Positions 1-57,766 of a stretch of DNA of 57,767 nucleotides are shown here, one piece after another. Location: positions 1-57,767 of IMG/VR virus record IMGVR_UViG_3300030060_004810; one strand, given 5' to 3'. How positions within the stretch are numbered: position 1 is the stretch's first letter; each line of letters begins with the position of its first letter. The notes beneath the pieces were generated by a model. The model was not told where the DNA came from. It did no database searches and worked only from the letters and a program-made list of their open reading frames with translations. The translations under genes and the position numbers were made by a program. The stretch comes from a virus (taxonomy: Duplodnaviria; Caudoviricetes).

Positions 1-98
1 TTCCTTCTTCACTGCTTTTGATGCACTCATGATTTGCTCCTTGCAATCTTGGCCCGTTGGCCTGTGTACGCGCCGAAAAGGTCCATGGGGAAAGAGTC
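1..98. repeat. Terminal direct repeat (circular assembly overlap), copy 1
   Basis: Bases 1-98 are identical to 57669-57766. Genes 27..602 and 56919..57698 join across it with an ATGA overlap. Confidence 0.95.
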
Positions 99-693: not shown

Positions 694-2145
694 ATGTACA
701 CTTTCGCGACACAACCTTACGAACATCAACAACAAGTCTTTAATGATTCGTGGCAACGGCCTTACTTTGGGCTTTTTATGGAGATGGGCACAGGAAAGTC
801 CAAGGTCGCCATTGACACGATGGGCGCGCTGTATGAGGCGAAGGAGATTAACACAGCTTTAGTCATTGCGCCCAAAGGTGTCTTTGATAACTGGGTGAAG
901 AAAGAAATACCCGCGCATTTGCCCGAGCGTATCCAGACAAAAATCGTCAAGTGGCAACCCAACTTCACTAAAAAGTTCCGTGAGGCAATACGCGAGATAG
1001 CTGACCCAGAGAAGCGTGAGCCGGGGTTCCTGCACATTCTGGTAATGAACACAGAAGCGTTCAGCACTCCCAAGGGTGCAACAGCCGCGGAACGGTTTGT
1101 GAAGCTTAACCCCAACTGCATCACGATTCTGGATGAAAGCACGACGATCAAGAACAAGGGTGCCCAGCGGACGAAGAACCTGATCAAGATAGGTCAGGCG
1201 TCCAAGTATCGACGCATCCTGACAGGCTCGCCCATCACTAAAAGCCCCATGGATTTGTTCAGCCAATGTGCGTTTCTGGAGCAAGAGGCGTTGGGCTTCA
1301 ACAGCTTCTATGGCTTTCAGGGCCGGTATGCGGTAGTTCAGCGCAGGAACATGGGGCCGCATAGTTTTAACGAGATTGTCGGATATCGTCGCTTAGATGA
1401 GCTTGGCGAGAAGCTGGACCGGTTTAGTAGCAGGGTGCTGAAAGAAGAGTGCCTTGATCTACCGGACAAGGTATACCTGCGGCGCGAGGTCAATCTAAGC
1501 AAAGAGCAGGTGGTGGTGTACAAGCAGATGCAAGATTTGGCGCTGGCACGGCTGGAAAAAGGCGAGTTGGCTACCACAGCCTCTGTCCTGACACAGATCA
1601 TGCGGCTACAGCAAATCTGTTGCGGTCACCTGCAACCAGACGAAGGACCGCTACAACCTATAAAAAACAATAGGTTACCGGAACTTCTTGATGTAGTTGA
1701 AGAAGTACAAGGCAAGGCAATTATCTGGGCGACTTGGACTCACGACATCCACGCCATCGAAGAGGCGTTGGCCAAGAAATATGGTCCGGGGTCCGTGGCC
1801 AGTTATTTCGGAGAGACGGCGCAGGAAGACCGGCAGGACATTATTGAACGCTTTCAAGACCCGGATTCGGAGCTACGGTTCTTTGTAGGTCAGCCCCGCA
1901 CCGGAGGCTACGGCATTACCCTGACAGAAGCGAACACCGTCATCTACTTCAGCAACAGCTACGATCTGGAGATTCGGTTGCAGTCCGAGGACCGCGCCCA
2001 CCGTATCGGCCAGAAAGACACGGTAACCTATGTTGATCTGGTGAGTCCGGGCACTATAGACGAAAAGATCCTGTCCGCGTTACGGGACAAGATCAATATC
2101 GCTGGTGATGTACTGGGCGAAAGCGCCAAGGATTGGCTGATTTAA
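694..2145 (+). CDS. SNF2-family (SF2) helicase/ATPase
   Basis: MEMGTGKS Walker A, ILDES Walker B, LTGSP, GGYGITLT and QSEDRAHRIGQ motifs. Start taken at MYTF, downstream of the promoter. Only plus-strand gene. Confidence 0.92.
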   Translation: MYTFATQPYEHQQQVFNDSWQRPYFGLFMEMGTGKSKVAIDTMGALYEAKEINTALVIAPKGVFDNWVKKEIPAHLPERIQTKIVKWQPNFTKKFREAIREIADPEKREPGFLHILVMNTEAFSTPKGATAAERFVKLNPNCITILDESTTIKNKGAQRTKNLIKIGQASKYRRILTGSPITKSPMDLFSQCAFLEQEALGFNSFYGFQGRYAVVQRRNMGPHSFNEIVGYRRLDELGEKLDRFSSRVLKEECLDLPDKVYLRREVNLSKEQVVVYKQMQDLALARLEKGELATTASVLTQIMRLQQICCGHLQPDEGPLQPIKNNRLPELLDVVEEVQGKAIIWATWTHDIHAIEEALAKKYGPGSVASYFGETAQEDRQDIIERFQDPDSELRFFVGQPRTGGYGITLTEANTVIYFSNSYDLEIRLQSEDRAHRIGQKDTVTYVDLVSPGTIDEKILSALRDKINIAGDVLGESAKDWLI

Positions 2146-5100
2146 ACAGGCTTATCTCGCATCATCATTTCAGCGGCAAGCATTCCTATGTCGTCTTGAG
2201 GACCTAAGACTCTTGCGGCCCGCTGAATGGACTGCGGTGTTGCTCTTGCCGCCACTGGCGGTGGTGTGGGCGGTGGTGTGGGCGCTTGTGCGACAGGAGG
2301 TGGTGTAACTTCTTCTCTTTCGGCCCGCATCTCATCACCAAAGAAATAACGTAGGGCTAACTTACCGCCCTCAAATTCCACGATCGCACGGGCTATGTCG
2401 CGAACTAAAAATTCGGGCACTTTCCTGTTTCTGGGTACACCCGTCCTCTGCTCCATGAACCGGATGTAACCTTCTGTGTCATTTTCTGACGGAGGTGCAT
2501 ACTTGGTTATGAACTCACCCAAGGTCAGACCTCGCGTTTGCGTATCGAGGACAATCTGACGGGTCAAAGCGTTCAGACCCTGACCGGGGGTAGAGAAGGA
2601 TGCAAAGCCCTCTAAGCCTTCTTCCGCTCCGGGCTGTCCCGCCATTCTTAGATTGCCGGGGTTGTTATTCTTAATTGACAACGGTGCATCTAACTGCTGA
2701 TCTATGGTCAGGGCACCTAGTTGCTGTGCAGGAACTCTTCCCGTACCAGCAAGCTGTCCTTCCATCCTTTCAAAATCGCGGCGAGTGTCTAGCGGGATGC
2801 CCCGAGGTTCAGGTGCAGACAAATTAGTTGGGCGCTGTGCAACACGGGCCATGACCGGGTCTGGCGCAGGCTGTGCGGTAGGGCGCATCGCCTCCATTTG
2901 TGCCGCCGCCAACTCAGATTCTAAGTTAGGTTCCGCTTGTGGCGCAGGCTGTGGTATAGGCTGTGGTGTAGGCTGTGGTGTAGGCTGTGGTGTAGGCTGT
3001 GGCGCAGGTTCCGGTGCGGCTTGTGGCGCAGGTTCCGGTGCGGCTTGCGGCGCAGGCTGTGACGCGGCGGGAACCAATGCTTCTCCCGTTTCGGTTCGTT
3101 CTGCTTGTTCAATGCCACTACGAACACCTGAAGAATAAAAAATCGCCGGAAGTGACCTAAAATATTCAATCGCCTTCTTTTCTGTTTTAGGTGATTTTGC
3201 CAGCAAAAACCTCATTAAATCTGGTTCCGTCATTGCTCGAATGTAAATGTCCTGCACTTTCATAGCAGGGGCATTTAAACCAAGCTCTGCGGTAGCGTTT
3301 GACGTAGTTTGTGCTACAGACATAGAAGCACCCGGAACATTTCCGATTATGCCTTTGAGCCTATTTAAAATTACGTTTCCGCCAACAGCGCCTAGTCCAC
3401 GAATAAGGATGTTTGACAACAGCGCGGCTTTGTCTTGTAACCTTTCTACAGACTGTGGACCGTAATTACGCATGACTTGAGCAATATCGGCAGATTGATT
3501 AATCAATGTTTGGTAATCTTCAAATGCCGCTTGCGTGATAATTCCATTTTTTTGTAACAACTCGGCAACAGAGTCGCCGTCCCGACCATCTAATGGATCA
3601 AATAAATATTGTCGAAATTTCTGAAAATCAAGATCTCTGCTAGGGTTTCGTCCTCCAGCATAAGTATAAGCAGAGTCTAATATTGCATACACCAAAGCTT
3701 TGTTAGTTTTTTCCCTGAGTTCGGCGGCGTCCTTGATGCCAAGTTCCGTCAGTATCTGAGCGAAGACGCCACCATCATCTGCTGGAGGGCCAGACACCGC
3801 GGACCTAATTTCGTCCATCAGTTGTTGAAAATTTTGAGGAGAGTTTACTCTAGGTTCTTGCGGCGTACCCAAAATGTCTCTGATTCGTTTTCCCGGATTG
3901 TCAAAAACACCGCGGAATCTTGATAGCAATTTTTGATCTTGTAAATCCGTCTCAATTCTCTGTTGTTCTGCGATCAAAGCTTCAAAGTCAAGCCGACCGC
4001 TCATCGCTCTTTTTAAGTCTTGAAACACATCTGGAAATATCGGCCCCAAAGCTTCTTCGTTTTTTTCTATAAATGTTTGCGCTCTTTTAGGATCAACCGT
4101 GTTAAATGTAGGTGACTCAGGGTTACGATCTAAAGTGGACCTGAAAAATATTTTAAGGAAATCGTTTTTACCGGCTTGGTATGTTCCTAGACGAGCGATT
4201 CCCGATTCAGAAAAACGGGCAATTTCATCTTCCGTTAAACTTCCACGCACGGCATCAAAACCACCCGTGTCTATCCAATTAATGGCGTCTTCAATCTCAT
4301 TAAATCTTACAGAAACCTCATCGGCGCTTCCCGCAAACAATTTTTGGAAAGCAAGCTTTGGATTAATACGTAAACGACCTTTTGGGTCTTTTTGCCGTAA
4401 ATCACCGATAAATGTACGAGTGAAAACATCATGCTTTGCTACGTTAAAAGCATTAGCTTTTCGCAATAAAATTAATCCCGCTTGAACGCCTTCTCGACCT
4501 TGCTCCTCTAAGCTTTGTAAAAGAGCCTCAAAAGATTGATACCCTTCCGGACCTCCATCAAGTAAAGAGCTACCGCCAGATAAAGCTTCTAAATCACGAA
4601 TGATGCCATCTTCTACCACGCTCATGTGGTAACTCTCAGCGGCGCGATTTTGATTTACGTTGGACCTGTTTGCTCGGCTTAGGCGTCTTCTATAATCCAG
4701 AAAATTAGCTAAAGACAAACCTGTTGCGTCTTGGCCCGTGAGTCGTGCGCGAGCATCCGCAACCCGAAGGCCAATCGCATCAAACTCTCCCTGCGCTGTA
4801 GCCGCGGCGATTAATCTACGGATATACGCGGCCTCACCTTTTACGTCCCGTGTTTGCGTTGTGCTAGGACGAGTCACTTCGCCCAACTCGTCCCTTAATA
4901 TTGTAATTTGTTCTTGTGGAGGAAGACCTTCTATACGAGTTAAAAGGGGCTGTAATCCGTCTTCTACTCGAGGCGGAAGAGTATTCAAGTATGATCTAGC
5001 CTCTCTTCGGAGCCCTTCTAAAGTCTTGAAGGCGTCATCTTCGATACCGCGAAGTCGGTTCAAATTAGCTTCCAAGTTAGAAGCGTCCGGACTAATTTCT

Positions 5101-14428: not shown

Positions 14429-15400
14429 TTAAAACGTTGATACTGCTACACGTTTCCACGTATTTGTAGCCACACAAATGTACAAATATTCCGTGTCATA
14501 GGCTAATTCACCTTTTGTCCCTGACGCAGAAGAACTTGCAGGGGTCTGTGATGTTTGTATCGTAATGCTGTCTCCGGTAGTGGCTAAGGCGTTAAAAGTT
14601 CCTGCACCGGGCGTCGATGCGCCGATATTTGTACCGTCAATCTCACCCCCCGCCACGTCTATTGAAGGAATTGTCGCCGTGCCCGTGGTGCTTAAAGTAG
14701 TAAACGCACCCGTAGCAGGAGAATTAGCCCCGACAGGAGTGCCGTCCACCGCTCCACCATTGATGTCAACGGCGGCAAAAGTAGAAGTTCCGCTAGAAGC
14801 AATGTTACCCGTGACGTTCCCTGTGACGTTGCCAGTAACATTACCAGTGACGTTCCCTGTCAAATTACCGGTAACATTACCCGTGATCGCGCCTGTCACG
14901 TTACCGGTAACATTACCCGTCAAATTACCGGTAACATTTGTAGCTACAAGATCAACAAACACCTGCGTGACGGTAGCGCCCGTGCCGCCACCATTAAACT
15001 TCAATATAACGTCTTTTCCGTTGGCAATCTCAAAATCATTAGAGGCGTTGTAAGTGCCTTGAAAAACAATGATTGATCGACTGCCACTTAAAGAATTACG
15101 AATATGAACGATTTTTTCGGCATTGTTAGGGGTTAACTGCACGTATGCGGTAGCGCCAAGATCACCCCCATCCGTAAATTCAATGAACTTGTTCCGCCCG
15201 TTAGACGTGGACCCGTCCGTTATAGGAAGATCGGTAGGGCTACCTGAACTACCGGCAGAAGACAAGTTGACCGAAGCAATGCCGTCTATGGCGCTATCAA
15301 TTAGATCAAAGTTTGTGTTCGTGGTTGTTCCCCACGTACCCGACTGCTCGCCAGTAGCAATCTTTTCAATACCAAGGTTTGTCGTATATGTACTAGGCAT
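14429..15400 (-). CDS. Tail fibre/spike-like structural protein
   Basis: MPSTYT...GEQSGTWG N-terminus, (GN[VL]T)n repeats and a YLYICVATNTWKR C-terminus. Confidence 0.7.
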   Translation of the reverse strand: MPSTYTTNLGIEKIATGEQSGTWGTTTNTNFDLIDSAIDGIASVNLSSAGSSGSPTDLPITDGSTSNGRNKFIEFTDGGDLGATAYVQLTPNNAEKIVHIRNSLSGSRSIIVFQGTYNASNDFEIANGKDVILKFNGGGTGATVTQVFVDLVATNVTGNLTGNVTGNVTGAITGNVTGNLTGNVTGNVTGNVTGNVTGNIASSGTSTFAAVDINGGAVDGTPVGANSPATGAFTTLSTTGTATIPSIDVAGGEIDGTNIGASTPGAGTFNALATTGDSITIQTSQTPASSSASGTKGELAYDTEYLYICVATNTWKRVAVSTF

Positions 15401-28328: not shown

Positions 28329-28811
28329 TTAAGATGCGTCAGAAGTGCTGGATATTCCAAAAAACTTCAGGACAATAACCGTGTCACCGCCGGGATCTCC
28401 CGAGAGAACAATCTCAACTTCATCTGCCGTGCCCGTAGCCGCAGTGGTTGTTCCACCGGACATCCCAAGAACACCGTTACATGGAAAATACCCTTTAAAG
28501 CCGGTTGAATTTACAGCCGCAGAAATACCGTCAACAAAACCGTCAGTATCGGCATCTGTGCCGATATCGTTAAGCGTGACAGAGTTTGAAGATGCAGTGG
28601 TAACAGCAATTGTAACCGCCATAGGAATAAAGTTGTCTGGAATGCCAATCGCAGACTCTTTGCCCGTGGTAGCACCATCCGCCACCGTGATGGTCGCTTC
28701 GTAAGTAGAAAGCGTCATAGTGCTGGTTACAGCGCCGGTAGTAGAGTTTTTGGTAATGTCTGAGAAACCGTTTTCAGAACGGACGGGACCGTTAAACGTA
28801 GTATTAGCCAT
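28329..28811 (-). CDS. Putative minor capsid/decoration protein
   Basis: MANTTFNGPVRSENGF N-terminus, T/S/G-rich, first gene after the MCP terminator. Confidence 0.6.
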   Translation of the reverse strand: MANTTFNGPVRSENGFSDITKNSTTGAVTSTMTLSTYEATITVADGATTGKESAIGIPDNFIPMAVTIAVTTASSNSVTLNDIGTDADTDGFVDGISAAVNSTGFKGYFPCNGVLGMSGGTTTAATGTADEVEIVLSGDPGGDTVIVLKFFGISSTSDAS

Positions 28812-28881
28812 GAGGTTCTCCTGTCGTGGCCAGTGTCAGCCTCAGTATGGGGCTGTCAGGAAAAATTTATATTAACATAAA

Positions 28882-40823: not shown

Positions 40824-40947
40824 CCGCGCCAGTTGTTACGGATCGGTTGCGGCGGAGTGCTCAGAAATTACTTGAACGGCTAGCCCGCGCGGTTGTGCGG
40901 ATTCGTATGCTGCCAGGCGCATACAACTTTTGGCGCTAGCGGCAGGC

Positions 40948-40974
40948 AAAAAAACCCCGCCTCGAGGGCGGGGT
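40948..40974 (-). terminator. Intrinsic terminator ending the early array
   Basis: ACCCCGCC-loop-GGCGGGG-U7; hairpin identical to the one in 41558-41585. Confidence 0.88.
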
Positions 40975-40994
40975 CCAATGGTGGCCGCTACTGG

Positions 40995-41252
40995 TCAGCG
41001 GCGGGCGGGTATGCGGATCAGATCGCGCTCGAGATCGTCAGAGATCCCCCAGCGGACGAACGTGTCCCCCGTGGGCTTCAGCCTGCCATTCACCGCTCGA
41101 TAGATCAGCGGCTCCGCGTTGGCGGTTTTGCAGACCAGATACTCGGACCCATCGGTGAGCCCTTTCGATTGATCATAGTCTCGCAGGCGCTTCACGCAGA
41201 ACCAGACCATCATGCTTCCGTAAACCTGTTCGATCGGTGCAATCCGGATCAT
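40995..41252 (-). CDS. Small early hypothetical protein (85 aa)
   Basis: ATGA-coupled to the upstream ORF; ends before the terminator. Confidence 0.65.
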   Translation of the reverse strand: MIRIAPIEQVYGSMMVWFCVKRLRDYDQSKGLTDGSEYLVCKTANAEPLIYRAVNGRLKPTGDTFVRWGISDDLERDLIRIPARR

Positions 41253-41494
41253 GATTTGCCACCCTTGGCGCGCTTAAATTTTACGCCCATCTCAGCGAGT
41301 AGAGTGTCATCAAACTTTGCGAATTCTTCCGCGACTTGAAGGAAAGCGGGGTAGTGCTTTGCCAGTACCTTTCGGTTCTGCATATCCAGCGCACACACCG
41401 CGGTGTGGATTCGATCGGCGGCGGTAGCCAGTTCCCAAACGCGGGTCTTGGCTACGCCAACAGTCTCTAGTTCGTTTTGAAAGTTGTTAGACAT
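41249..41494 (-). CDS. Small early hypothetical protein (81 aa)
   Basis: Start MSNNFQ after TTTGGAGA. Confidence 0.75.
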   Translation of the reverse strand: MSNNFQNELETVGVAKTRVWELATAADRIHTAVCALDMQNRKVLAKHYPAFLQVAEEFAKFDDTLLAEMGVKFKRAKGGKS

Positions 41495-41501
41495 ATGTCT
41501 G

Positions 41502-41585
41502 TCTCCAAAGTGACGCCGCGACATTGCGGCAAGCGCAGTATGCGATAAAAGCCAGACAAAAAAAACCCCGCCTCGAGGGCGGGGT
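41502..41585 (-). promoter_or_regulatory. Repeated expression cassette 1 (terminator/promoter/5' hairpin/RBS)
   Basis: Terminator 41558-41585, -10 CATACT, hairpin GCCGC-AATGTC-GCGGC, TTTGGAGA. Confidence 0.85.
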
Positions 41586-41604
41586 CTGGATCGGATCGCT
41601 TGCG

Positions 41605-41793
41605 CTATCTATCTCTCTTCGAGAATGACTCGGTCCACGCTATGAACACCGCCTTGGCTGTACTGCGATCCAAGTCGAAATTCTCTTCGAGCCATTGGGG
41701 CGCGCCGAACATGTTGATGGCGCCAGAATCCCGTAGGCTATCGAGTGTCTCAAAGTACTCAGAGTGTAAAGGCTGATCTGCTGAAATTTCCAT
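41605..41793 (-). CDS. Small early protein (62 aa, LD.LR.SG..NMFGA family)
   Basis: Start MEISAD after TTTGGAGA. Motif is common in small phage proteins. Confidence 0.75.
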   Translation of the reverse strand: MEISADQPLHSEYFETLDSLRDSGAINMFGAPQWLEENFDLDRSTAKAVFIAWTESFSKRDR

Positions 41794-41801
41794 AATTGTA
41801 T

Positions 41802-41883
41802 TCTCCAAAGATTCGCCGCGACATTGCGACCGTGAAACTATCGCATATCTCACGGGCAAAAAAAACCCCGCTCGAGGCGGGGT
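41802..41883 (-). promoter_or_regulatory. Repeated expression cassette 2
   Basis: Terminator 41858-41883, TATGC-GATAGT, hairpin GTCGC-AATGTC-GCGGC, TTTGGAGA. Confidence 0.85.
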
Positions 41884-41902
41884 AGGTAAAAGCCGGAATT
41901 GC

Positions 41903-42289
41903 TTAGGCGATTTTCTGATCAGCCGCGGACATGGTGTCGATTGTGTCGCGCATTTGAATATTGGCCCGCTCAATGTATTGGATATGAGCGGTTAAGCCGT
42001 CTATTAACGATCGGATCAGCGTAATAAATTCGGCCCCAGTGTCAGGACCCCCGCTCTCTAAAAACGTCTTCACCTTGTCATAGTCAACAGCATGCGCTTC
42101 GGGCATATCAACCCCATTTAACACGGCGGCCTCGATAACTTCGGCCATAGATATATTGCTGTTATCCATTAACTCGAGAATGTCTTCGGCATCATCCGCC
42201 GATACGCCATCGGGCACTTCGTCGCATACTTCGAAAGTCGCTGTGACTTCCACGTCTTGGTCTTGGCTCAAATCAATTCGTATCGCCAT
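41903..42289 (-). CDS. Small strongly acidic early protein (128 aa)
   Basis: Start MAIRID after TTTGGAGA; D/E-rich. Confidence 0.75.
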   Translation of the reverse strand: MAIRIDLSQDQDVEVTATFEVCDEVPDGVSADDAEDILELMDNSNISMAEVIEAAVLNGVDMPEAHAVDYDKVKTFLESGGPDTGAEFITLIRSLIDGLTAHIQYIERANIQMRDTIDTMSAADQKIA

Positions 42290-42297
42290 GGTTCTAA

Positions 42298-42380
42298 TCT
42301 CCAAAATGAAAGCCGCAAAATTACGGCACGGCTAGTGTCGCATATGCGGCGGGCAAAAAAAACCCCGCCGAGGCGGGGTT
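42298..42380 (-). promoter_or_regulatory. Repeated expression cassette 3
   Basis: Terminator 42355-42380, TATGC-GACACT, hairpin GCCGTA-ATTT-TGCGGC, TTTGGAGA. Confidence 0.85.
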
Positions 42381-42406
42381 AGGCGGCACTTTGTTTTCGC
42401 ACCGCA

Positions 42407-42544
42407 TCATGCAACGCCGAGACACTTTTTCAGGTTGGCAATATCCACCGCGTCCCGTCCCGTATGAGTGGGCTTCGCTAACAATCGAGCGAGGGCGCGC
42501 TCCTGCCGCACCCGCTTCCCTTTTTTCCTCCAAGCTTTTGCCAT
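42407..42544 (-). CDS. Small basic early protein (45 aa, not in ORF track)
   Basis: Hand translation: MAKAWRKKGKRVRQERALARLLAKPTHTGRDAVDIANLKKCLGVA, after TTTGGAGG. Confidence 0.7.
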   Translation of the reverse strand: MAKAWRKKGKRVRQERALARLLAKPTHTGRDAVDIANLKKCLGVA

Positions 42545-42552
42545 GGTCTTAT

Positions 42553-42632
42553 CCTCCAAAGTCGCCGCAACATTACGGCAACGCATACTCTCGCATATAT
42601 GGCGGATAAAAAAAACCCCGCCGAGGCGGGGT
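42553..42632 (-). promoter_or_regulatory. Repeated expression cassette 4
   Basis: Terminator 42608-42632, TATGC-GAGAGT, hairpin GCCGTA-ATGT-TGCGGC, TTTGGAGG. Confidence 0.85.
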
Positions 42633-42638
42633 CAAATG

Positions 42639-42830
42639 TCACTTAGGGTGATACCAACTGGGGGCGCGGGCTTGCTCCCCGTGGCGTTGCCAATAGTCGG
42701 CATAGTGTCGCGCCTCCTGATACATTCGGAACCAATCCGGATTGCTCTGGGGAAATCGTGAGCGCATCGCCGCCCGATGCCAGCGCAAATACCGCGCCGC
42801 CTTTGCCCGCCAACATTCTCGCTTATTCAT
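42639..42830 (-). CDS. Small R/W-rich early protein (63 aa)
   Basis: ATGA-coupled; ends at the terminator. Confidence 0.65.
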   Translation of the reverse strand: MNKRECWRAKAARYLRWHRAAMRSRFPQSNPDWFRMYQEARHYADYWQRHGEQARAPSWYHPK

Positions 42831-43522
42831 GACGCGGCCCCTATCAAATCGGGGTTATCCACCACAAAGCCGGACCGATCCCGCCGCGCTGATCCTTTCG
42901 GGGTTAGCCCGACGATTTGACCAGTGGCAAATGCGTTAGCGATATCGTCTCGATCCCCATCGATAACGGGGCGCCCGCGAAACATCCGCGGAAACCCGCC
43001 GCGGAAAACTACCGCCACGGGGGCGTCGGTTTGGAAAGCCCGCCGGTTTTGGTTTCGGTACTGGGGCCGCCCGCTATAGCTAAAAATTAGCTTGTAGTTA
43101 TCGGGGGTTTTTCCAAGTCTCGCCGCAACCTTTGAATAGTCCACAAACAAAAGCTCGGGGTGCGCTTGCGGTATCCCGTACCGCTCCCATTTAACGTCCG
43201 AGAGAACATTAAGACGGACCGCGCCACGCTCGCCAGTGCGCTCACAAAGCTTTGTGAAGTTTGTTAGCTCTCGGTGCAATTGCTCGAGAAACCCCGCCCG
43301 ATCATTATGCAAGTATGCCGCCTTACGCTGGCGCGCCTCCCGCACGTTATCAAACCGCCCGCGGCCTTGCTCAGAAAGGCACTCCGCCATACACCCCGCC
43401 GCCTTAGCTCCCGCGCAAAGTATGTTATCCGGATAAAGCGATAACCCCGCATAACGAAAGGGGGCCGCCTTGCCCGTTTTTTTCAGTTTGGGGTTCGCGC
43501 CCCGAGTATCTAATAATTGCAT
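42827..43522 (-). CDS. Gene product 88-like protein
   Basis: N.KL.K, C......GC...CL..GRG, RLNVLSD, DYSK and DGD..D motifs. Confidence 0.65.
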   Translation of the reverse strand: MQLLDTRGANPKLKKTGKAAPFRYAGLSLYPDNILCAGAKAAGCMAECLSEQGRGRFDNVREARQRKAAYLHNDRAGFLEQLHRELTNFTKLCERTGERGAVRLNVLSDVKWERYGIPQAHPELLFVDYSKVAARLGKTPDNYKLIFSYSGRPQYRNQNRRAFQTDAPVAVVFRGGFPRMFRGRPVIDGDRDDIANAFATGQIVGLTPKGSARRDRSGFVVDNPDLIGAAS

Positions 43523-43641
43523 TAGTTCACCCCCATCAAAAGCTTTTTAAGATCCGCTACAGAACGGCCAGACCTTGCGGATAGCTCGGCAAGGGTGATG
43601 TTAGTTCTATCGAATAAGTTAATAATTTGCTGATCACTCAT
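43522..43641 (-). CDS. Small HTH-like protein (39 aa)
   Basis: MSDQQIINLFDRTNITLAELSARSGRSVADLKKLL after TTTGGAGA. Confidence 0.65.
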   Translation of the reverse strand: MSDQQIINLFDRTNITLAELSARSGRSVADLKKLLMGVN

Positions 43642-43649
43642 TTTTGTAT

Positions 43650-43728
43650 TCTCCAAAGTCGCCGCCCATCGCGGCCCGCTTAGGCTATCGCATACAGCAG
43701 ACAAAAAAAAGCCCCGCCGGAGCGGGGC
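43650..43728 (-). promoter_or_regulatory. Repeated expression cassette 5
   Basis: Terminator 43703-43728, TATGCGA-TAGCCT, hairpin GCCGC-GATGG-GCGGC, TTTGGAGA. Confidence 0.85.
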
Positions 43729-43746
43729 AAACTTTGGAGTGTTAAA

Positions 43747-43914
43747 TCAGTCTTCTATTTCAAAAATGTTGAAGTGGACGCCGTAGCTGTTAGGGGCCTC
43801 CTGATCCTCATCCCAGATAAAATCTTCGGTAGCGATCTGGCGCGCCTGCTCGGGATTATCTGCATCAAAATAGAAAACACTGGTTTGCACTACTTCCACG
43901 CGATAGGCGGCCAC
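43747..43914 (-). CDS. Small acidic early protein (55 aa)
   Basis: GTG start just after the DUF932 stop; Y.VEV...DADNPEQA pattern. Confidence 0.6.
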   Translation of the reverse strand: MAAYRVEVVQTSVFYFDADNPEQARQIATEDFIWDEDQEAPNSYGVHFNIFEIED

Positions 43915-43915
43915 T

Positions 43916-45049
43916 TTAAGCCGCCATCGCCACGCGTTGCCAATCGGAGCGGGGCAGATCCAACACGCGCCCGCCAAGCTTTTGCCAATCGTCCACACTG
44001 TCAGCGTCGGCGGTATGCGCTACCGCCGTGACTGCGTTTACCATAGTGGCACGGGTAACCGGCTGACCGGCATAGCCCGACTGACCGATAGTGGCCAACA
44101 GGCCATCCATCAAACTGGCGGTATCCTTTTTAGTAAGCGCCAGCACTTTGCCCATGGCCTCGACTGCCGACTGTGGCGAGCCTTCGACTTTGTCATCGTG
44201 CGCGGTTTTCATCTTTTCCAGCACTTCGTCAAATGACTCACGGCTGGCATATGCCGCGGTAACGTCCCGCATTTGAAGCGCCAATGCGTGATTGTCCGCG
44301 TCTTTTGCTTCATCCGTCAGCAAGCCCCACGTATCAGCATCGCCTCGAGCGCCAGTGATGTGAGACTTGCGGGTACGCTTTTCGGTTTGCATACCGTTTA
44401 GGCAGGCCAGCGTCCAAAACATTTGGTACACGTTAACGCTACCGCACCCGACTTCGCTGTTAGACATACCAATACCAAGCGCCATGATGTCACCCACCGC
44501 CGCGCCCTCGCCAGTAATAACCGCTGATTTCAGTCGGAGGTACAGGCGCTTATCAGTCACCGTCCCATTTACCACTTGCCATTGGGCGTCACTTTCCATT
44601 AGCTCGGGCAGGGCCGAATTCAACAGGTGAACATTGTCGAAAGTCTTAAACTTATCGCTGACAAACGCTCGAGCCGTGCCCGCGTTATCAGTGTGCTGGA
44701 ATGAACGAATCATTCGCACCGCCGGTTCCTTCTGCCAAATAGCGTTAATCAGGCCATCGAATTCGCGGGAGTAATCCTGCTGAAGGCGGCGGGCAGTCCG
44801 GACATCAATACCGGCCCGCTGGCTGATTTGGTCAAACGCCACATCATTAGCGGACAGAATTTGGGTGGGTGCACCCCCCGTCTGCTCCATAATGATCTGA
44901 CTGACTTTACTACCGTCACCCATATCGCCGGTCACAAGCTGAAGCTGATTAGTCGGGGCCAGAAAGTCTTGCGATCTGGCGGCTTGGTCCTGTACCTGTT
45001 GAAGCAAACGGGTCAGGGTTTGATCTGAGTTTTCAATTGAATTTTGCAT
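43916..45049 (-). CDS. DUF932-like protein
   Basis: RAFVSDKF..FDN, NSEVG.GS and CLNGM motifs. Confidence 0.7.
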   Translation of the reverse strand: MQNSIENSDQTLTRLLQQVQDQAARSQDFLAPTNQLQLVTGDMGDGSKVSQIIMEQTGGAPTQILSANDVAFDQISQRAGIDVRTARRLQQDYSREFDGLINAIWQKEPAVRMIRSFQHTDNAGTARAFVSDKFKTFDNVHLLNSALPELMESDAQWQVVNGTVTDKRLYLRLKSAVITGEGAAVGDIMALGIGMSNSEVGCGSVNVYQMFWTLACLNGMQTEKRTRKSHITGARGDADTWGLLTDEAKDADNHALALQMRDVTAAYASRESFDEVLEKMKTAHDDKVEGSPQSAVEAMGKVLALTKKDTASLMDGLLATIGQSGYAGQPVTRATMVNAVTAVAHTADADSVDDWQKLGGRVLDLPRSDWQRVAMAA

Positions 45050-45055
45050 AGTTGT

Positions 45056-45170
45056 TCTCCAAAAGAGCGCGGCAGAATTGCCGCACAGCCACTATCGCAT
45101 ACGGGGCCGTGCAGGACAACAGTTTTTTTAAAAATTTCTACAGGCATGAAAAACCCCGCTGGGGCGGGGT
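45056..45170 (-). promoter_or_regulatory. Repeated expression cassette 6
   Basis: Terminator 45149-45170, TTGTCC-17-GATAGT with TATGC, hairpin GCGGCA-ATTC-TGCCGC, TTTGGAGA. Confidence 0.82.
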
Positions 45171-46079: not shown

Positions 46080-46497
46080 TACTTGTAAGGACCTCTCTGT
46101 AGGAAACAGGGAAACTGAAATGCTTATCCGGTGTAGCCCGCAATCCGTCCTGCCATACGTCCACTGCTCGATTGCCTCGATAAAGGAACACCTCATGTCC
46201 TGTGGCGCTGGTCAGCTTAACGGCTATCCAGACACTGCCCTTGGCATGTTGGGTCATAAACGCAACTTGGTGGGGAGACATCTTCACGCTCATGTTTGCC
46301 GTGGTCTTCAGTTCCACCATGTGCCAATTACCCTGACTGTCCATGATCAGGACATCCGGCACACCCAAGGTGGCTCTGGATTCTAAGCGTGTGGCTGACC
46401 AATCAGGAAAGTTGTCCCTCATCGCTTTCTTCAGAGACTGCCAGAAGCTCGCCTCCCTCTGTTTCTTCGTCTTCGGCTTCCCGTCCAGTATGTCCAT
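46063..46497 (-). CDS. VRR-NUC / PD-(D/E)xK nuclease (resolvase-like)
   Basis: E...W, GVPDV, VELK and SPHQ motifs. Confidence 0.8.
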   Translation of the reverse strand: MDILDGKPKTKKQREASFWQSLKKAMRDNFPDWSATRLESRATLGVPDVLIMDSQGNWHMVELKTTANMSVKMSPHQVAFMTQHAKGSVWIAVKLTSATGHEVFLYRGNRAVDVWQDGLRATPDKHFSFPVSYREVLTSIASMR

Positions 46498-47092
46498 CTG
46501 TTTCCTCCGCTAAACGCTCTCGAGCGCGTTTTCGATTACCAGCGTCCTCTGCCCCCGCGTCATGGGTCAAAGGGGCGTAGGTCTGCTTCAGTTCGTTCAA
46601 AGCTTTCATGACCTCTTCTTTGCTCATCTGCTCAATCGTGCCGTGGCGAATCTCTGTCTTGTTAACGTAGATGTCGCCCTGCGCCTGACCCCTGCGGTAC
46701 TCAGCCTGCACTGCCGCACTGAACGCCCCCTGCTCAAGGGCGGCATCTCGAATAAGTTGCAGATCTCTCAGGTGGCGCTGGTATTCCACGCCGTACTTCT
46801 GATCAAGCTCCTGCCGATACTCTCGAATGGCTCTGCACACATGGGGGGAGATGCGGGGATTGGTTAGCTCAGAAGCGCGGACATGAGCAGACTTCTCAGG
46901 GTAGCCAGCATTGATGGCCGCTTCCCGCATGGTGATCTGCCCGTCCTTTGCTACAAGCTCACGTACAAACAATTCCTGCCTGCGGGTCAAACGCTTCTCT
47001 GCCAAAGGGGGTCGGTTCGTCTGCTGGCGCTTTGCTTCCGGCAAAGCCGCCGCTTTGGTGTCCAAAACATTGGCGTATCTGTTCTTGGCCAT
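46403..47092 (-). CDS. terS: Terminase small subunit
   Basis: LTRRQELFV...EAAINAGY..KSA...ASEL HTH signature. Confidence 0.8.
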   Translation of the reverse strand: MAKNRYANVLDTKAAALPEAKRQQTNRPPLAEKRLTRRQELFVRELVAKDGQITMREAAINAGYPEKSAHVRASELTNPRISPHVCRAIREYRQELDQKYGVEYQRHLRDLQLIRDAALEQGAFSAAVQAEYRRGQAQGDIYVNKTEIRHGTIEQMSKEEVMKALNELKQTYAPLTHDAGAEDAGNRKRARERLAEETDGHTGREAEDEETEGGELLAVSEESDEGQLS

Positions 47093-47397: not shown

Positions 47398-47775
47398 TCA
47401 GCCATAACCGACATACTCCGTCAGGATCACATGACATCCGTCACGTATTCCGTCTTCGGCACAATCCCATAAGAGGTAACCGTCATAACCTTGGCTGAGT
47501 AGGATTTTCCAAGCAAGTAGAGCATCTGCCTCGCCCCCTCCACTGCCATTACCTACCCAGTACATGTACCAGCCATCCTTACCTTCTTGGGGTATTTTTG
47601 CGTCGTGAGTTACCTCACCTTCGGAGGACCGCAGGACTTCAAAACGACCCTCTTGCTCCCAGAAAAAAGCGGCCATGCTGGTATGCGCCAGAAACTTAAA
47701 ATCATCCATGTCAAATGACAGGGTACACCTGTCGGTTTCTTCAAGGACTTTGAGCAGTACGGTAGCTTCCATCAC
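47398..47775 (-). CDS. Hypothetical protein
   Basis: 125-aa acidic/aromatic ORF coupled to the upstream gene. Confidence 0.7.
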   Translation of the reverse strand: MMEATVLLKVLEETDRCTLSFDMDDFKFLAHTSMAAFFWEQEGRFEVLRSSEGEVTHDAKIPQEGKDGWYMYWVGNGSGGGEADALLAWKILLSQGYDGYLLWDCAEDGIRDGCHVILTEYVGYG

Positions 47776-48914
47776 GATAGTCTCTCTTCTAATGGCTGTA
47801 CGAGCCGGTAGATATTACCTTCATAGGTCGTTTGACGGGGTCCTACAAAGCTGGGTTTGACGTAAATCTTTTGTTGGTACTGGGGGTGGTGCCTGTACCG
47901 TGGGTGACTCAGCGTCCTCCAGTAGCCTCTGCGGCGGTGTGGTTTAGGTGAAGCGTGAGTCCCGGTCCCTTCTTTCTGCGTGGCGGGCATTCGGTCCAAC
48001 AAAAGCACGTGAGGGCCGCTGGCCGTGTTCCATGGTCGGTCACGGTTTGCCAGATTGCTCTTGGATTTAGCAAGCTTTTTAGGGTTGGGTAGCACTTCGA
48101 CGGCGTGTCGATTTCCGTATTTTAAATATCGGTGCATACTCCCAACTTCCGTTAATGTTTTAGCAGTACAGTCTCCCCCCTCTTTTTGAGAACTGTCAGG
48201 AATTGAATTGTGTATATAAAAATCATCAGTTGACTTTGTTGGAAAGTAATACCACCGAGGCCTTAAATCACCCAAATCGCCTTGGAAAGCAATAATTTCT
48301 TTTTTTTCGCTAGGGGTATAAATTGGATGGTCTAAGTCAGGTATCCAAAAACAATACGTTCCTAGAATAGCGGGGTCTGTCCACTCGCCTTTATCCCAAA
48401 AAGACACGGCGCACAAACCATAATAAAAATCATGGCTGTCGAGATCAAACATCCGGTCCTCTGGTGTATCCGAATCTGCAAGCATTCTTTGTACAAAATT
48501 GCATGAAAATGCGTCTTCTTCTAATTCTTTACTAAGCGGGTGGTCTTCGTTATCTCCCTTTATAAAATACACCCACTTTCTGACGGGACCTTTTTTTACG
48601 TTGGCAAGATCTTTCCAATAATCTTCTGCCAAAAAAACAAAATCGTCATAAAGCCATTTAGTTTTTGACTCAAACCATTCTTCGTAAGGAAGATCTCCGC
48701 GTTCTTTCCAACCAAATTCGGCGTTCATAACGCGTTCAAAAAGTCCGGGTTCGGTTTGCTCAAAATGCTTTCCCCAAAGACTAATTATTGGTGCATGTAA
48801 AGACTTCAAAATCATTTTTTTGATCAAGGGGCTTTGCCACCCGGTGTCAGGTCTGTCTAAGCCACGCAGAGTTTTTCTCACAAAATCGTAATCTGGGCGA
48901 CGCATGGTCATCAC
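47772..48914 (-). CDS. Hypothetical protein with C-terminal H.RRG.WR motif
   Basis: 380 aa with an AT-richer variable core and HASPKPHRRRGYWR...IYVKPSFVG tail. Confidence 0.75.
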   Translation of the reverse strand: MMTMRRPDYDFVRKTLRGLDRPDTGWQSPLIKKMILKSLHAPIISLWGKHFEQTEPGLFERVMNAEFGWKERGDLPYEEWFESKTKWLYDDFVFLAEDYWKDLANVKKGPVRKWVYFIKGDNEDHPLSKELEEDAFSCNFVQRMLADSDTPEDRMFDLDSHDFYYGLCAVSFWDKGEWTDPAILGTYCFWIPDLDHPIYTPSEKKEIIAFQGDLGDLRPRWYYFPTKSTDDFYIHNSIPDSSQKEGGDCTAKTLTEVGSMHRYLKYGNRHAVEVLPNPKKLAKSKSNLANRDRPWNTASGPHVLLLDRMPATQKEGTGTHASPKPHRRRGYWRTLSHPRYRHHPQYQQKIYVKPSFVGPRQTTYEGNIYRLVQPLEERLS

Positions 48915-49108
48915 CCCCGCTTACTGGTCATGGGGCGCATGTATCGTTCTTCGGCAAGTTGCACACGTTTCTTGGACCCGTCTGCCCACATGATCTCCAT
49001 CCACTTACGGCCCCGCTTCAAGATAGCCGCGGCCCGTGTTCCGTTATCCGTGTGGTATAGCACGGGTTCCCAGCCCCTGTTGAGGGCTTTTCGATAAGTC
49101 AGTTTCAT
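48911..49108 (-). CDS. Small basic hypothetical protein
   Basis: 65 aa after TAGGAGA. Confidence 0.75.
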   Translation of the reverse strand: MKLTYRKALNRGWEPVLYHTDNGTRAAAILKRGRKWMEIMWADGSKKRVQLAEERYMRPMTSKRG

Positions 49109-49133
49109 AGTTTTCTCCTAGTAGCCATAAAAC

Positions 49134-49163
49134 ATTTTACCACGCTTTACTCTCATACGTCAA
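49134..49163 (-). promoter_or_regulatory. Sigma70-like promoter
   Basis: TTGACG-18-TAAAAT with extended TG. Confidence 0.65.
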
Positions 49164-49214
49164 ATGGTAAAAAAGCTGTGTCCTAGTCTTTACGAGCATT
49201 CTTTATGAAATACT

Positions 49215-49411
49215 AGGCTCCCGCGCCTCGTATTAATACATTTTTTGTAGTCACCACCAACAACAAAAAACGCACAGACTAGGTATTGCAACCGACTACA
49301 GCCAAAACCGGCTGGGCGTGGGACAAAAGGTAAAAACCCACTCGAACAAAACTCTTAGAGGAGGTGCGGCAACACCTAGTTTTGCTCTACCCAAGAGGAG
49401 TGCGAGAGCCC
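49215..49411 (-). ncRNA. Candidate structured non-coding RNA (~197 nt)
   Basis: Own promoter, 10-bp closing stem, 12-bp internal helix and a long 3' hairpin. G-U pairs work only on the minus strand. No credible ORF. Confidence 0.65.
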
Positions 49412-49417
49412 ATTCAC

Positions 49418-49446
49418 ACCTTACAGAGGATTACTCTCATAGTCAA
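49418..49446 (-). promoter_or_regulatory. Sigma70-like promoter for candidate ncRNA
   Basis: TTGACT-17-TAAGGT; predicted +1 at 49411. Confidence 0.7.
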
Positions 49447-49482
49447 ATGATAGAAAAACGGAAAGGGTTGTGTTTTGGTTTT

Positions 49483-49743
49483 CTATCGAAACTTGCGTTG
49501 GATGTATTTGAAGACGCTGTAGATGGTCAGCACGTAGAAGGCTATGACGGTCATGGGTATGGAGATGTAGGCCAGTTCCCATGGGGACAGGAACAGAAGC
49601 TCCCACGTGAAGTGGATGGCGGACTCCACGTCTCCCATGGGACCTATGTCATAGGCTATGTCGTTTTCTTCGAGCAGGAACTGGAGGTCGTCCCATTCTT
49701 CGGGCGTGTAGCACCGGACGTAATCTTCCGGACAGGGTTGCAT
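49483..49743 (-). CDS. Small membrane protein
   Basis: 86 aa with a C-terminal TM helix and basic tail. Confidence 0.65.
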   Translation of the reverse strand: MQPCPEDYVRCYTPEEWDDLQFLLEENDIAYDIGPMGDVESAIHFTWELLFLSPWELAYISIPMTVIAFYVLTIYSVFKYIQRKFR

Positions 49744-50021
49744 CAGTGGAGCATGGACCCGTGGGCCGAGTTCACATAATCCTCATGCTTCTCGAGGAGA
49801 TAGTCGGTGTAGATTTCAAAGCCCATGTGGCATAGCCCTGCAAAGAACTCCTGCTCGCTTTCGGCGGACAGAATTTTCATCATGCTTTGGCAGGTTTCAT
49901 CCCCGAGCCATGAGTCGTTTGTGGTTTCATTAAGAACAAAGTCGAGAAAAGCCTGATCGTCTTCCAACAATTGGGCAATCTCTCGACGTTGGTTAGTGGT
50001 CACTAACTTTTTATCGCTCAT
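49743..50021 (-). CDS. Small acidic hypothetical protein
   Basis: 92 aa, coupled to its neighbours. Confidence 0.7.
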   Translation of the reverse strand: MSDKKLVTTNQRREIAQLLEDDQAFLDFVLNETTNDSWLGDETCQSMMKILSAESEQEFFAGLCHMGFEIYTDYLLEKHEDYVNSAHGSMLH

Positions 50022-50606: not shown

Positions 50607-50635
50607 AAACTAACATATATGCAGACGCCGCGCAA
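50607..50635 (-). promoter_or_regulatory. Sigma70-like promoter fused to terminator U-tract
   Basis: TTGCGC-17-TAGTTT with extended TG. Confidence 0.55.
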
Positions 50636-50660
50636 AAAAAACCCGGCTCTGGGGCCGGGT
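50634..50660 (-). terminator. Intrinsic terminator
   Basis: ACCCGGC-loop-GCCGGG-U8. Confidence 0.85.
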
Positions 50661-50763
50661 CGGGATCATCATTTCGCAGTCACTTTGGAGAAAACTATGG
50701 TTGATCCCTAATAGCTCTTAGGAGTTCTGCGATAACCCCCATGAGAAGTCATCGCAGGACCCC
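50634..50763 (-). ncRNA. Candidate 3'-UTR-derived sRNA antisense to the early-gene RBS
   Basis: A ~19-bp hairpin, then a stem-loop presenting UUUUCUCCAAAGUGAC, then a terminator. Confidence 0.55.
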
Positions 50764-56918: not shown

Positions 56919-57698
56919 TTAAAAGGGTGCGTCTTCTCCTGCACCCGCGCCATCGTCGGTGTGTTTGACTTCAACCTCACCGCGCAGAATGGATTCGGAA
57001 AACTCTTTGGCTTGCATGTAGTGTGCGCCGTCTTCGACAACACCTTCCAAGCTGATGTCCCAGCCATGCCAGCTACCCTTGCTGTTCTCTTCAGAGACAG
57101 TTTTGAGCAGATAAATGTGGCTGAAACGGGGTGGTGTGAACGGCCCGTTTTTGCCCACTAAAGTGCGTTGGGCAATCGTGGAGTTCCACCTACGGCTTTT
57201 CTTCAACTGCGTAGATTTCATCGGTATCAAGGCAGTCGTAGTCGTGCCGTCCTCTTCAAGAATGACGACGAAGTGCTGGTGCGTCTCCTCGAGGTACGTG
57301 CCGTTACCGCCGACAACATAGTCTTTATTGTCGTTCGGGTCCCGCTCAACTTTCGGCAAAGTGTCCTCCGGCGTATAGATGTTTACAGGAGCGCCACTGC
57401 CAGTGCCCCGAGGAGCCCACTCAATAAAGCGCCGCTGATAAGCTGAAGGTATGACACGAATACCTGTCTTACCAGAATAGACCGTATTCGATACGGTATT
57501 GAGGATATCGCCTGCCTTCGCGTCGTCCAGATCATCCAGCACTGGGTCCTGACGGCTGAGAAGCTTGAGGAAAGGTAACGCCAGATCGTCCTGACCCAAA
57601 TTTTCAAGGCCGAGATTAGCGTCTTGTTCAAAGATGTCCGGGCTAAACGGTACGATTTCATTAGCCTCTTCCTTCTTCACTGCTTTTGATGCACTCAT
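56919..57698 (-). CDS. Putative single-stranded DNA-binding/annealing protein
   Basis: DLALPFLK, MKSTQLKKSR.WN and N.KGSW motifs; acidic C-terminal tail ending PF; upstream of primase. Confidence 0.65.
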   Translation of the reverse strand: MSASKAVKKEEANEIVPFSPDIFEQDANLGLENLGQDDLALPFLKLLSRQDPVLDDLDDAKAGDILNTVSNTVYSGKTGIRVIPSAYQRRFIEWAPRGTGSGAPVNIYTPEDTLPKVERDPNDNKDYVVGGNGTYLEETHQHFVVILEEDGTTTTALIPMKSTQLKKSRRWNSTIAQRTLVGKNGPFTPPRFSHIYLLKTVSEENSKGSWHGWDISLEGVVEDGAHYMQAKEFSESILRGEVEVKHTDDGAGAGEDAPF

Positions 57699-57766
57699 GA
57701 TTTGCTCCTTGCAATCTTGGCCCGTTGGCCTGTGTACGCGCCGAAAAGGTCCATGGGGAAAGAGTC
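57669..57766. repeat. Terminal direct repeat (circular assembly overlap), copy 2
   Basis: Identical to 1-98; only the final base 57767 differs from position 99. Confidence 0.95.

Follow-up and report, generated by a model that had tools for sequence, protein, structure and literature searches.

A compactly folded, covarying RNA between the replication and packaging genes of an uncultured marine phage

The window, by which we mean the whole stretch of DNA analysed here, is the complete 57,767-base virus record of an uncultured marine phage. Judged by sequence comparison, its minus strand from 49413 to ~49172 encodes a member of a compactly folded phage RNA family that is absent from Rfam. We regard the existence and architecture of this RNA as highly probable. 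It is classed with the orphan structured phage RNAs and is not categorically new. Phage genomes are usually annotated protein by protein and for this reason conserved RNA genes go unseen. The preliminary description had proposed an unannotated phage ncRNA at this position, and this is borne out: the structure covaries, no Rfam family matches it and the element is found in contigs from RNA libraries. The roles given there as examples, a translation regulator, a protein sponge or an anti-defence RNA, are possible ones.

An identical 98-nt direct repeat at window positions 1-98 and 57669-57766 points to a circular or circularly permuted genome whose ends overlap in the assembly. The RNA element (minus strand, ~49413 to ~49172, 3' end at 49172-49175, ~240 nt) fills part of a 374-nt gap between an 86-aa ORF (49483-49743) and a 65-aa ORF (48911-49108). 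The genes around it are on the minus strand. Replication genes (DNA polymerase A, a helicase-like ORF and a nuclease) lie upstream, so that the RNA sits at the junction of replication and packaging genes. Downstream is a variable slot (47772..49108, minus strand), the cargo of which in this phage is the 65-aa ORF and a 380-aa ORF (47772-48914), neither having a family match. The slot is followed by a conserved 125-aa ORF (47398-47775) and the gene of the small terminase subunit, terS (46403-47092), both on the minus strand. The 380-aa ORF (minus strand) has a mosaic make-up: relatives share its last ~118 residues at 75-78% identity, whereas other relatives match it over its full length at 36-39% only. 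The protein has no Pfam or PHROG family. Elsewhere, the minus strand holds eight near-identical GC-rich intrinsic terminators (40942-45170 and 50628-50661), several preceded by a conserved 58-64-nt repeat (families D4, D5, D8, D9) at a spacing of 250-1400 nt. These terminator/repeat units, which lie between the packaging and structural regions, may represent small genes or repeated transcription units of short length. Tandem-repeat arrays with a 12-nt period occupy 2917-3061 and 14781-14938 and would give repeated four-residue motifs if coding. ARAGORN identified no tRNA or tmRNA genes in the window.

A promoter on the minus strand precedes the RNA, as the preliminary description had read. This promoter P1 (49418..49446) consists of TTGACT (49446-49441), a 17-nt spacer and TAAGGT (49423-49418), and its position predicts a transcription start at 49411-49413. 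It does not appear in a generic scan because the -10 hexamer matches TATAAT at 3/6 positions. Promoter P1 is found before the RNA in 17 of 18 homologues, the exception being L097. An inverted repeat, GATAGAAAA-N21-TTTTCTATC (49449..49487, minus strand), can be read from the sequence immediately before the -35 hexamer. In relatives, including the divergent L096 (2430-2475), TTTCTATC is present at the same place in two or three direct copies, even where the upstream gene is different. This upstream repeat, which accompanies the promoter, may serve as a regulator site or a UP-like region. On the other side of the RNA, a U-run (49174-49169) and promoter P2 (TTGACG-18-TAAAAT, 49163-49134) for the 65-aa ORF together span 49134..49174 on the minus strand, an arrangement shared by this window and five sister variants. 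The two promoters are homologous and are the sole two such sites in the genome. Two close relatives, L022 and L023, possess one promoter P1/P2 hybrid and have lost the RNA, as would be expected if the two promoter copies had recombined. The more distant relatives L002 and L004 also lack the RNA, and it is therefore dispensable in nature.

Homologues were collected from viral and metagenome collections through neighbouring proteins and DNA patterns. The covariance model, built from 15 sequences and containing helices P1, Pa, P2, P3, P4 and P7, matched 21 of 49 sources (15 distinct sequences) and then 3/3 further loci. A pattern scan of metagenomes gave 20 stretches, seven of which are homologues by blastn; the other 13 were dropped as chance. 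The resulting set has 18 sequences, 17 of them distinct, all from contigs of uncultured marine phages. The closest carriers are 84-90% identical across the gap, which is unremarkable as raw conservation because the flanks are ~92% identical; on sequence comparison the informative homologues are the divergent members. In the phage collection, neither blastn of the element nor megablast of 17.8 kb of the window gave a match, and pattern scans of bacterial and archaeal genomes gave none either. The nearest phage records by DNA polymerase are DSL-LC04 (56%), 023Pt_psg01 (54%) and the pelagiphages HTVC023P and HTVC027P (~50%), and the RNA is present in 0/4 of the nearest complete records. In phage 023Pt_psg01 the model gave a weak match of 9.6 bits; it is antisense to annotated coding genes, within which it lies, and was discarded as chance.

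The consensus is branched, with eight helices and two crossing pairings. By comparison of the homologues, its conserved core is formed by the 5'-terminal stem P1, the hairpin P4 and a three-way junction of P5, P7 and P6. The 5' strand of helix P1 (GGGCUCUCGC, 49402..49411, minus strand) pairs with 49224-49215, the 10-bp terminal stem that had been described previously. All 18 sequences form 9-12 contiguous pairs here, with changes on both sides at 6/9 positions, among them exchanges of U-A to C-G and of C-G to G-C. Helix P1 was examined apart, as MAFFT and the covariance model put its 3' strand in shifted registers. This 3' strand lies inside the loop of P6 (49231-49227 with 49196-49192; 49192..49231, minus strand). 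The first pair of P6 is A-U, G-U or G-C, and in L096 two of its pairs are changed on both sides. A P1 3' strand placed in the P6 loop with a 0-2-nt junction is, as read from the sequences, the arrangement of an H-type pseudoknot with stacked stems. Helices P1 and P5/P6 may form together or alternately, as both are compatible with the sequence comparison.

The P5 5' strand (CCUAGUCU, 49276..49283, minus strand) pairs with its 3' strand (AGACUAGG, 49182..49189, minus strand), and in L096 and L097 both sides of three pairs have changed. This conserved partnership of 49283-49276 with 49189-49182 displaces a 12-bp helix (49369-49380 with 49278-49289) suggested earlier, which needs a segment that is missing in 6 of 15 aligned rows. 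P7 (49236..49275, minus strand) is a hairpin of variable length, the short forms having 7 bp and several a GAAA cap; it retains the long hairpin (49275-49236) of the earlier reading. P4 (49313-49306 with 49297-49290; 49290..49313, minus strand) has U-A, C-G or U-G as its innermost pair. Its loop, GGCUGU (49303-49298), is the 5' strand of P8 and pairs with ACAGCU (49174..49179, minus strand) in the second pseudoknot, at the 3' end of the conserved element. The first pair of P8 is G-C in nine sequences, G-U in five and A-U in one, and the remaining five pairs are invariant. An outer helix given by RNAalifold (5' GGGCU with the tail AGCUU) was rejected, since it fails in L096 and L097, where P1 and P8 hold.

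The peripheral domain (49314..49392, minus strand) is made up of Pa (49392-49389 with 49317-49314), P2 (49387-49378 with 49353-49344) and P3 (49341-49337 with 49322-49318), all on the minus strand. P2 is the helix with the best covariation, three of its pairs being changed on both sides. It is identical with the pairing GAGCAAAACU/AGUUUUGUUC that had been taken for the alternative state of a switch; the pairing is a conserved helix rather than an alternative. The variable extension of P2 contains CACCUCCU (49366-49359), an octamer to which attention had been drawn as identical to the 16S rRNA anti-SD. The octamer is indeed there, as the 3' strand of a variable hairpin that caps P2, but in relatives it is replaced or absent. 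Two small hairpins had also been listed: GUGGG/CCCAC is P3 and is kept, whereas CAGCC/GGCUG gives way to the covarying P4 together with P8. Across the RNA, junction sequences are conserved while the stems covary.

Three size classes can be recognised. The full form, which includes this window, has 201-242 nt. The intermediate form is L097 (181 nt), in which one hairpin replaces P2 and P3, so that the peripheral domain is reduced to a single hairpin. The minimal form of 138 nt (L096, L099, L100) consists of P1, P4, P5, P6, P7 and P8 only and lacks the peripheral domain. The earlier estimate of ~197 nt was thus right as to a structured RNA and short as to its length; the element extends ~40 nt further, to ~49172-49175.

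The model-derived alignment has 810 pair cells, of which 98.8% are standard pairs; sliding the partners by 1-3 columns lowers this share to 35-48%. There are 12 doubly changed pairs, whereas shuffles give 5.3 +/- 1.1 and 0/500 reach the observed value; homologue covariation is one of the checks that had been suggested beforehand. None of the 500 shuffles reaches the observed value on any of five measures, and an earlier alignment behaved similarly. Helices P5, P6 and P8 were left out of the search model and yet hold 3, 2 and 1 doubly changed pairs, respectively. Since most homologues are at least 75% identical, the number of independent covariation events is small, and L096/L100, L097 and the L030 group supply most of them. 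On the minus strand alone, many pairs are G-U, a point that had been noticed in the single sequence and is also seen in the homologue alignment. This points to a minus-strand RNA rather than a DNA element.

Folding energy is consistent with a structured RNA. The 197-nt stretch folds better than 200 of 200 shuffles (z -3.72), and the 242-nt stretch has a z of -2.79. The plus strand folds equally well relative to its shuffles (z -3.90) and folding energy alone therefore does not fix the strand. The absence of a credible ORF had been claimed and is confirmed: the element contains only 32-33-aa TTG frames, and length differences among homologues come as blocks of 19-23 nt.

Searches of catalogued RNAs, which had likewise been put forward as a check, gave no known family for the element. 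At the gathering threshold, the 4227 models of Rfam 15 run over the whole window had no match on it, and the only catalogued RNA in the window is Mu-gpT-DE (28809-28861, minus strand; 65.4 bits against a gathering score of 49). At E<=10, the region 49000-49600 gave two chance-level snoRNA matches (20.5 and 15.9 bits) and nothing else, and at E<=1 six homologue loci showed no match on the element. Among the literature titles searched, none is about this RNA. The RNA may be among the 10,006 candidates of the viral structured-RNA screen of Fremin et al. 2023 (PMC10690425). Five or six sample numbers of carrier contigs, depending on the list, gave no match in those of its supplementary lists that were searched.

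A small share of a 901-base query is represented in three seawater RNA libraries, which come from three studies. Their contigs, of 199, 151, 194 and 162 nt, all fall on 49178-49395, and as assembled sequences they carry no strand, true 5' or 3' ends or expression level. Two of these contigs end, without loose ends, at 49178 and 49182, and a DNA contig from another run extends beyond this point. Two contig ends within 4 nt of each other, by the predicted 3' end, are a weak hint of a discrete RNA. The flanks (48900-49177 and 49396-49800) are uncovered in the three RNA libraries, which was not counted as evidence.

The genes that accompany the RNA are variable. Slot genes differ among relatives and, in this phage and most relatives, the RNA heads this hypervariable slot upstream of terS. 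In all contexts examined the RNA is at most ~2.5 kb from terS. Three arrangements are found: (i) in this window and its sisters, the U-run and promoter P2 follow; (ii) in 11 of 17 distinct sequences, a conserved start region follows the tail within ~25-40 nt, nine distinct sequences running from the tail directly into it and L096/L100 having a similar one; (iii) in L097, the RNA comes after the terS stop codon, without a promoter of its own and upstream of a PDDEXK nuclease gene, with a hairpin and a promoter-like site between RNA and nuclease gene. The genes behind the conserved start region differ (ORFs of 41, 48, 78 and 120 aa and combinations), and the 125-aa gene and terS then follow. Across relatives, the slot cargo genes gave no informative family or only a PHROG of unknown function. 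In L038, L043, L050, L065 and L076, the slot just 3' of the RNA often encodes Cys-rich peptides of 41-48 aa, whose first four codons are common (MDMK) and whose remainder is divergent. In L097, two copies of an inverted repeat (GTTAGTGA..ACTAAC) lie 3' of the RNA (840-910, minus strand), the second within a TTGACA promoter-like site, an operator-like layout before the nuclease gene.

Between helix P1 and the peripheral domain lies J1 (49393..49401, minus strand), an unpaired, pyrimidine-rich and anti-SD-like strand (ACUCCUCUU) that adjoins helix P1. It is the one conserved unpaired segment that has a compositional signature. All 14 sequences examined have a J1 rich in C and U with a YCUU in it, while the sequence itself varies. 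Inspection by eye for a partner inside the RNA (P6 loop, AAAG junction, P1 3' strand) found none consistent across variants. Within 110 nt downstream, its best duplex is with the ribosome-binding site in 10/14 sequences (5-7 bp, no covariation), reaching 7 bp in the group of L030, L063, L065 and L076.

We propose, with a probability of roughly one in three, that the RNA is a riboregulatory leader which acts on translation start through its exposed pyrimidine strand. The RNA would be the folded leader of the slot transcript behind a sigma-70-type promoter and would survive as a stable fragment. J1, the unpaired pyrimidines beside helix P1, would pair with a purine-rich ribosome-binding site and regulate translation start, in cis where the conserved start region directly follows the RNA and perhaps in trans where the two are set apart by a second promoter, as they are in this window, or by some other context. 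The pseudoknotted body would serve as a sensor or a protective scaffold. A translation-directed leader is the first choice because of the pyrimidine signature of J1 and the conserved start region, which is kept in 11 of 17 distinct sequences despite the different genes behind it. However, J1 differs among sequences in which this start region stays the same, no covariation links it to the ribosome-binding site, and an SD is complementary to any run of pyrimidines. In this window and five sisters, promoter P2 intervenes between RNA and next gene and allows that gene to be expressed on its own, with no leader. A regulator that acts by simple base pairing can usually do with a plainer fold, no function is shared by the downstream genes, and in L097 the promoterless RNA lies 3' of terS with a hairpin and promoter-like site before the next gene. 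The elaborate fold, the bypass by promoter P2 and the L097 context make a stand-alone RNA nearly as likely. Such an RNA, which we consider possible, would be stable and act in trans through its three-dimensional fold, binding or titrating a host or phage protein as a scaffold, decoy or anti-defence RNA, and would be cut off the transcript where it heads one. Over the three contexts (promoter P2 behind, fusion to the start region, after terS), nothing but the RNA module is constant, its junction sequences are conserved while a peripheral domain can be lost, and the RNA libraries give short contigs that stop close to where the element ends, a weak hint. Loss in two close relatives would fit an accessory rather than an essential role. 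Against this, the loci examined contain no co-occurring partner protein, the next gene's start region is conserved along with the RNA, and 11 of 17 distinct sequences have no terminator 3' of the RNA, so that a processing step must be assumed.

The other explanations are less probable than the leader or the stand-alone RNA. A metabolite or ion riboswitch, a pseudoknotted aptamer that gates the slot and packaging genes, is unlikely. It would account for the 5' UTR position behind a promoter in 17/18 homologues, for covarying stems with conserved junctions and for a hairpin loop whose partner, the 3' tail, immediately precedes the start region. Yet no known class matches in Rfam, the downstream genes share no function, neither a conserved terminator nor a clear SD-sequestering alternative fold is found and the L097 context is no 5' UTR; the aptamer-like position directly before a gene is seen in 11 of 17 distinct sequences and not in the group of this window, where promoter P2 intervenes, or in L097. 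We give equally little credence to a put-like RNA for processive antitermination in cis, by which polymerase would read through strong terminators on the same strand. Such terminators are present (45165, 43728, 42633, 42380, 41883, 41587 and 40976) and the RNA lies close to a promoter where the packaging or late region begins, but the first of them is more than 4 kb away, polymerase starting at promoter P2 would do so without the RNA, the same downstream genes persist in relatives that lack it, and the fold is unlike the two adjacent stem-loops of put. A self-cleaving or other catalytic RNA that cuts the transcript at its own edge is a shade less likely again: a double-pseudoknot core, a dispensable peripheral domain and a 3' edge hinted at without a terminator would suit it, whereas no Rfam ribozyme family matches and the architecture cannot be mapped onto a known ribozyme. 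A comparison of helix order by eye with group I introns, HDV-like and glmS-like ribozymes and tRNA-like structures gave no fit. Least probable by some way is a DNA-level element (pac site, origin or operator array) or a chance structure without RNA function. Proximity to terS (within 2.5 kb in every context examined), repeats flanking the promoter and a plus strand that also folds better than shuffles would agree with it, but compensatory changes keep many G-U pairs, which are A-C mismatches on the other strand, the element is present in RNA libraries, and the strand-specific, G-U-tolerant covariation that speaks against a DNA element was largely obtained. That the ~140-nt double-pseudoknot core is a new functional fold, either a ligand-sensing riboswitch or a ribozyme, seems doubtful overall; if so, abundant uncultured ocean phages would gate or process the transcript of their hypervariable and packaging genes with it.

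The carriers form a clade of uncultured marine phages whose nearest cultured relatives (DNA polymerase ~50-56%) include pelagiphages. If the RNA controls the slot or late genes, ocean phages would prove to have a new kind of regulatory device; if it merely stabilises a leader, it is an ordinary addition to the orphan phage RNAs. The natural 138-nt minimal form is a ready construct for probing, structure determination and screens for ligands or partners.

The RNA can be compared with several known systems. 6S RNA is a long, mostly double-stranded rod with a large central bubble, and a mimic of it had been suggested on grounds of size; the present consensus is instead branched with two crossing pairings, no 6S model matches, and the suggestion does not hold. 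In lambda, the 6S transcript of PR' (~194 nt) runs to a terminator and is what the Q antiterminator acts on. Like the present RNA, it is short and starts from a promoter at the head of the late region, but the present RNA has no canonical terminator or identified Q-like context and has an elaborate conserved fold. The pRNA of the phi29 type is essential in phages that package without a small terminase; the phage studied here encodes a small terminase, close relatives with the same flanks do without the RNA and Rfam gives no pRNA match. HK022 putL and putR are ~70 nt, form two adjacent stem-loops and override terminators. They share with this RNA a phage-encoded fold directly behind a promoter, with a long operon and terminators further on, but the present RNA has 138-242 nt, eight helices and two pseudoknots and no similarity to put in sequence or model.

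The C4 RNA of P1 and P7 and the CI RNA of P4 are processed leader RNAs of 70-80 nt with proven complementary target boxes. The likeness lies in a stable small RNA from a promoter-proximal leader that pairs near downstream ribosome-binding sites, the difference in the match, here only 5-7 nt of pyrimidines with purines and no covariation. In riboswitches of the preQ1 and SAM-II type, a hairpin loop pairs with a 3' tail by the start site, much as the P4 loop pairs with the 3' tail ~25 nt before the conserved ribosome-binding site. The present RNA is several times larger, has a second long-range pseudoknot and lies in no ligand-related gene context. GOLLD and ROOL are much larger than the present RNA, and Mu-gpT-DE, at 53 nt, is smaller and less knotted. 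None of the three is homologous to it, and the resemblance is one of kind: all are conserved, covarying phage ncRNAs brought to light by comparative analysis.
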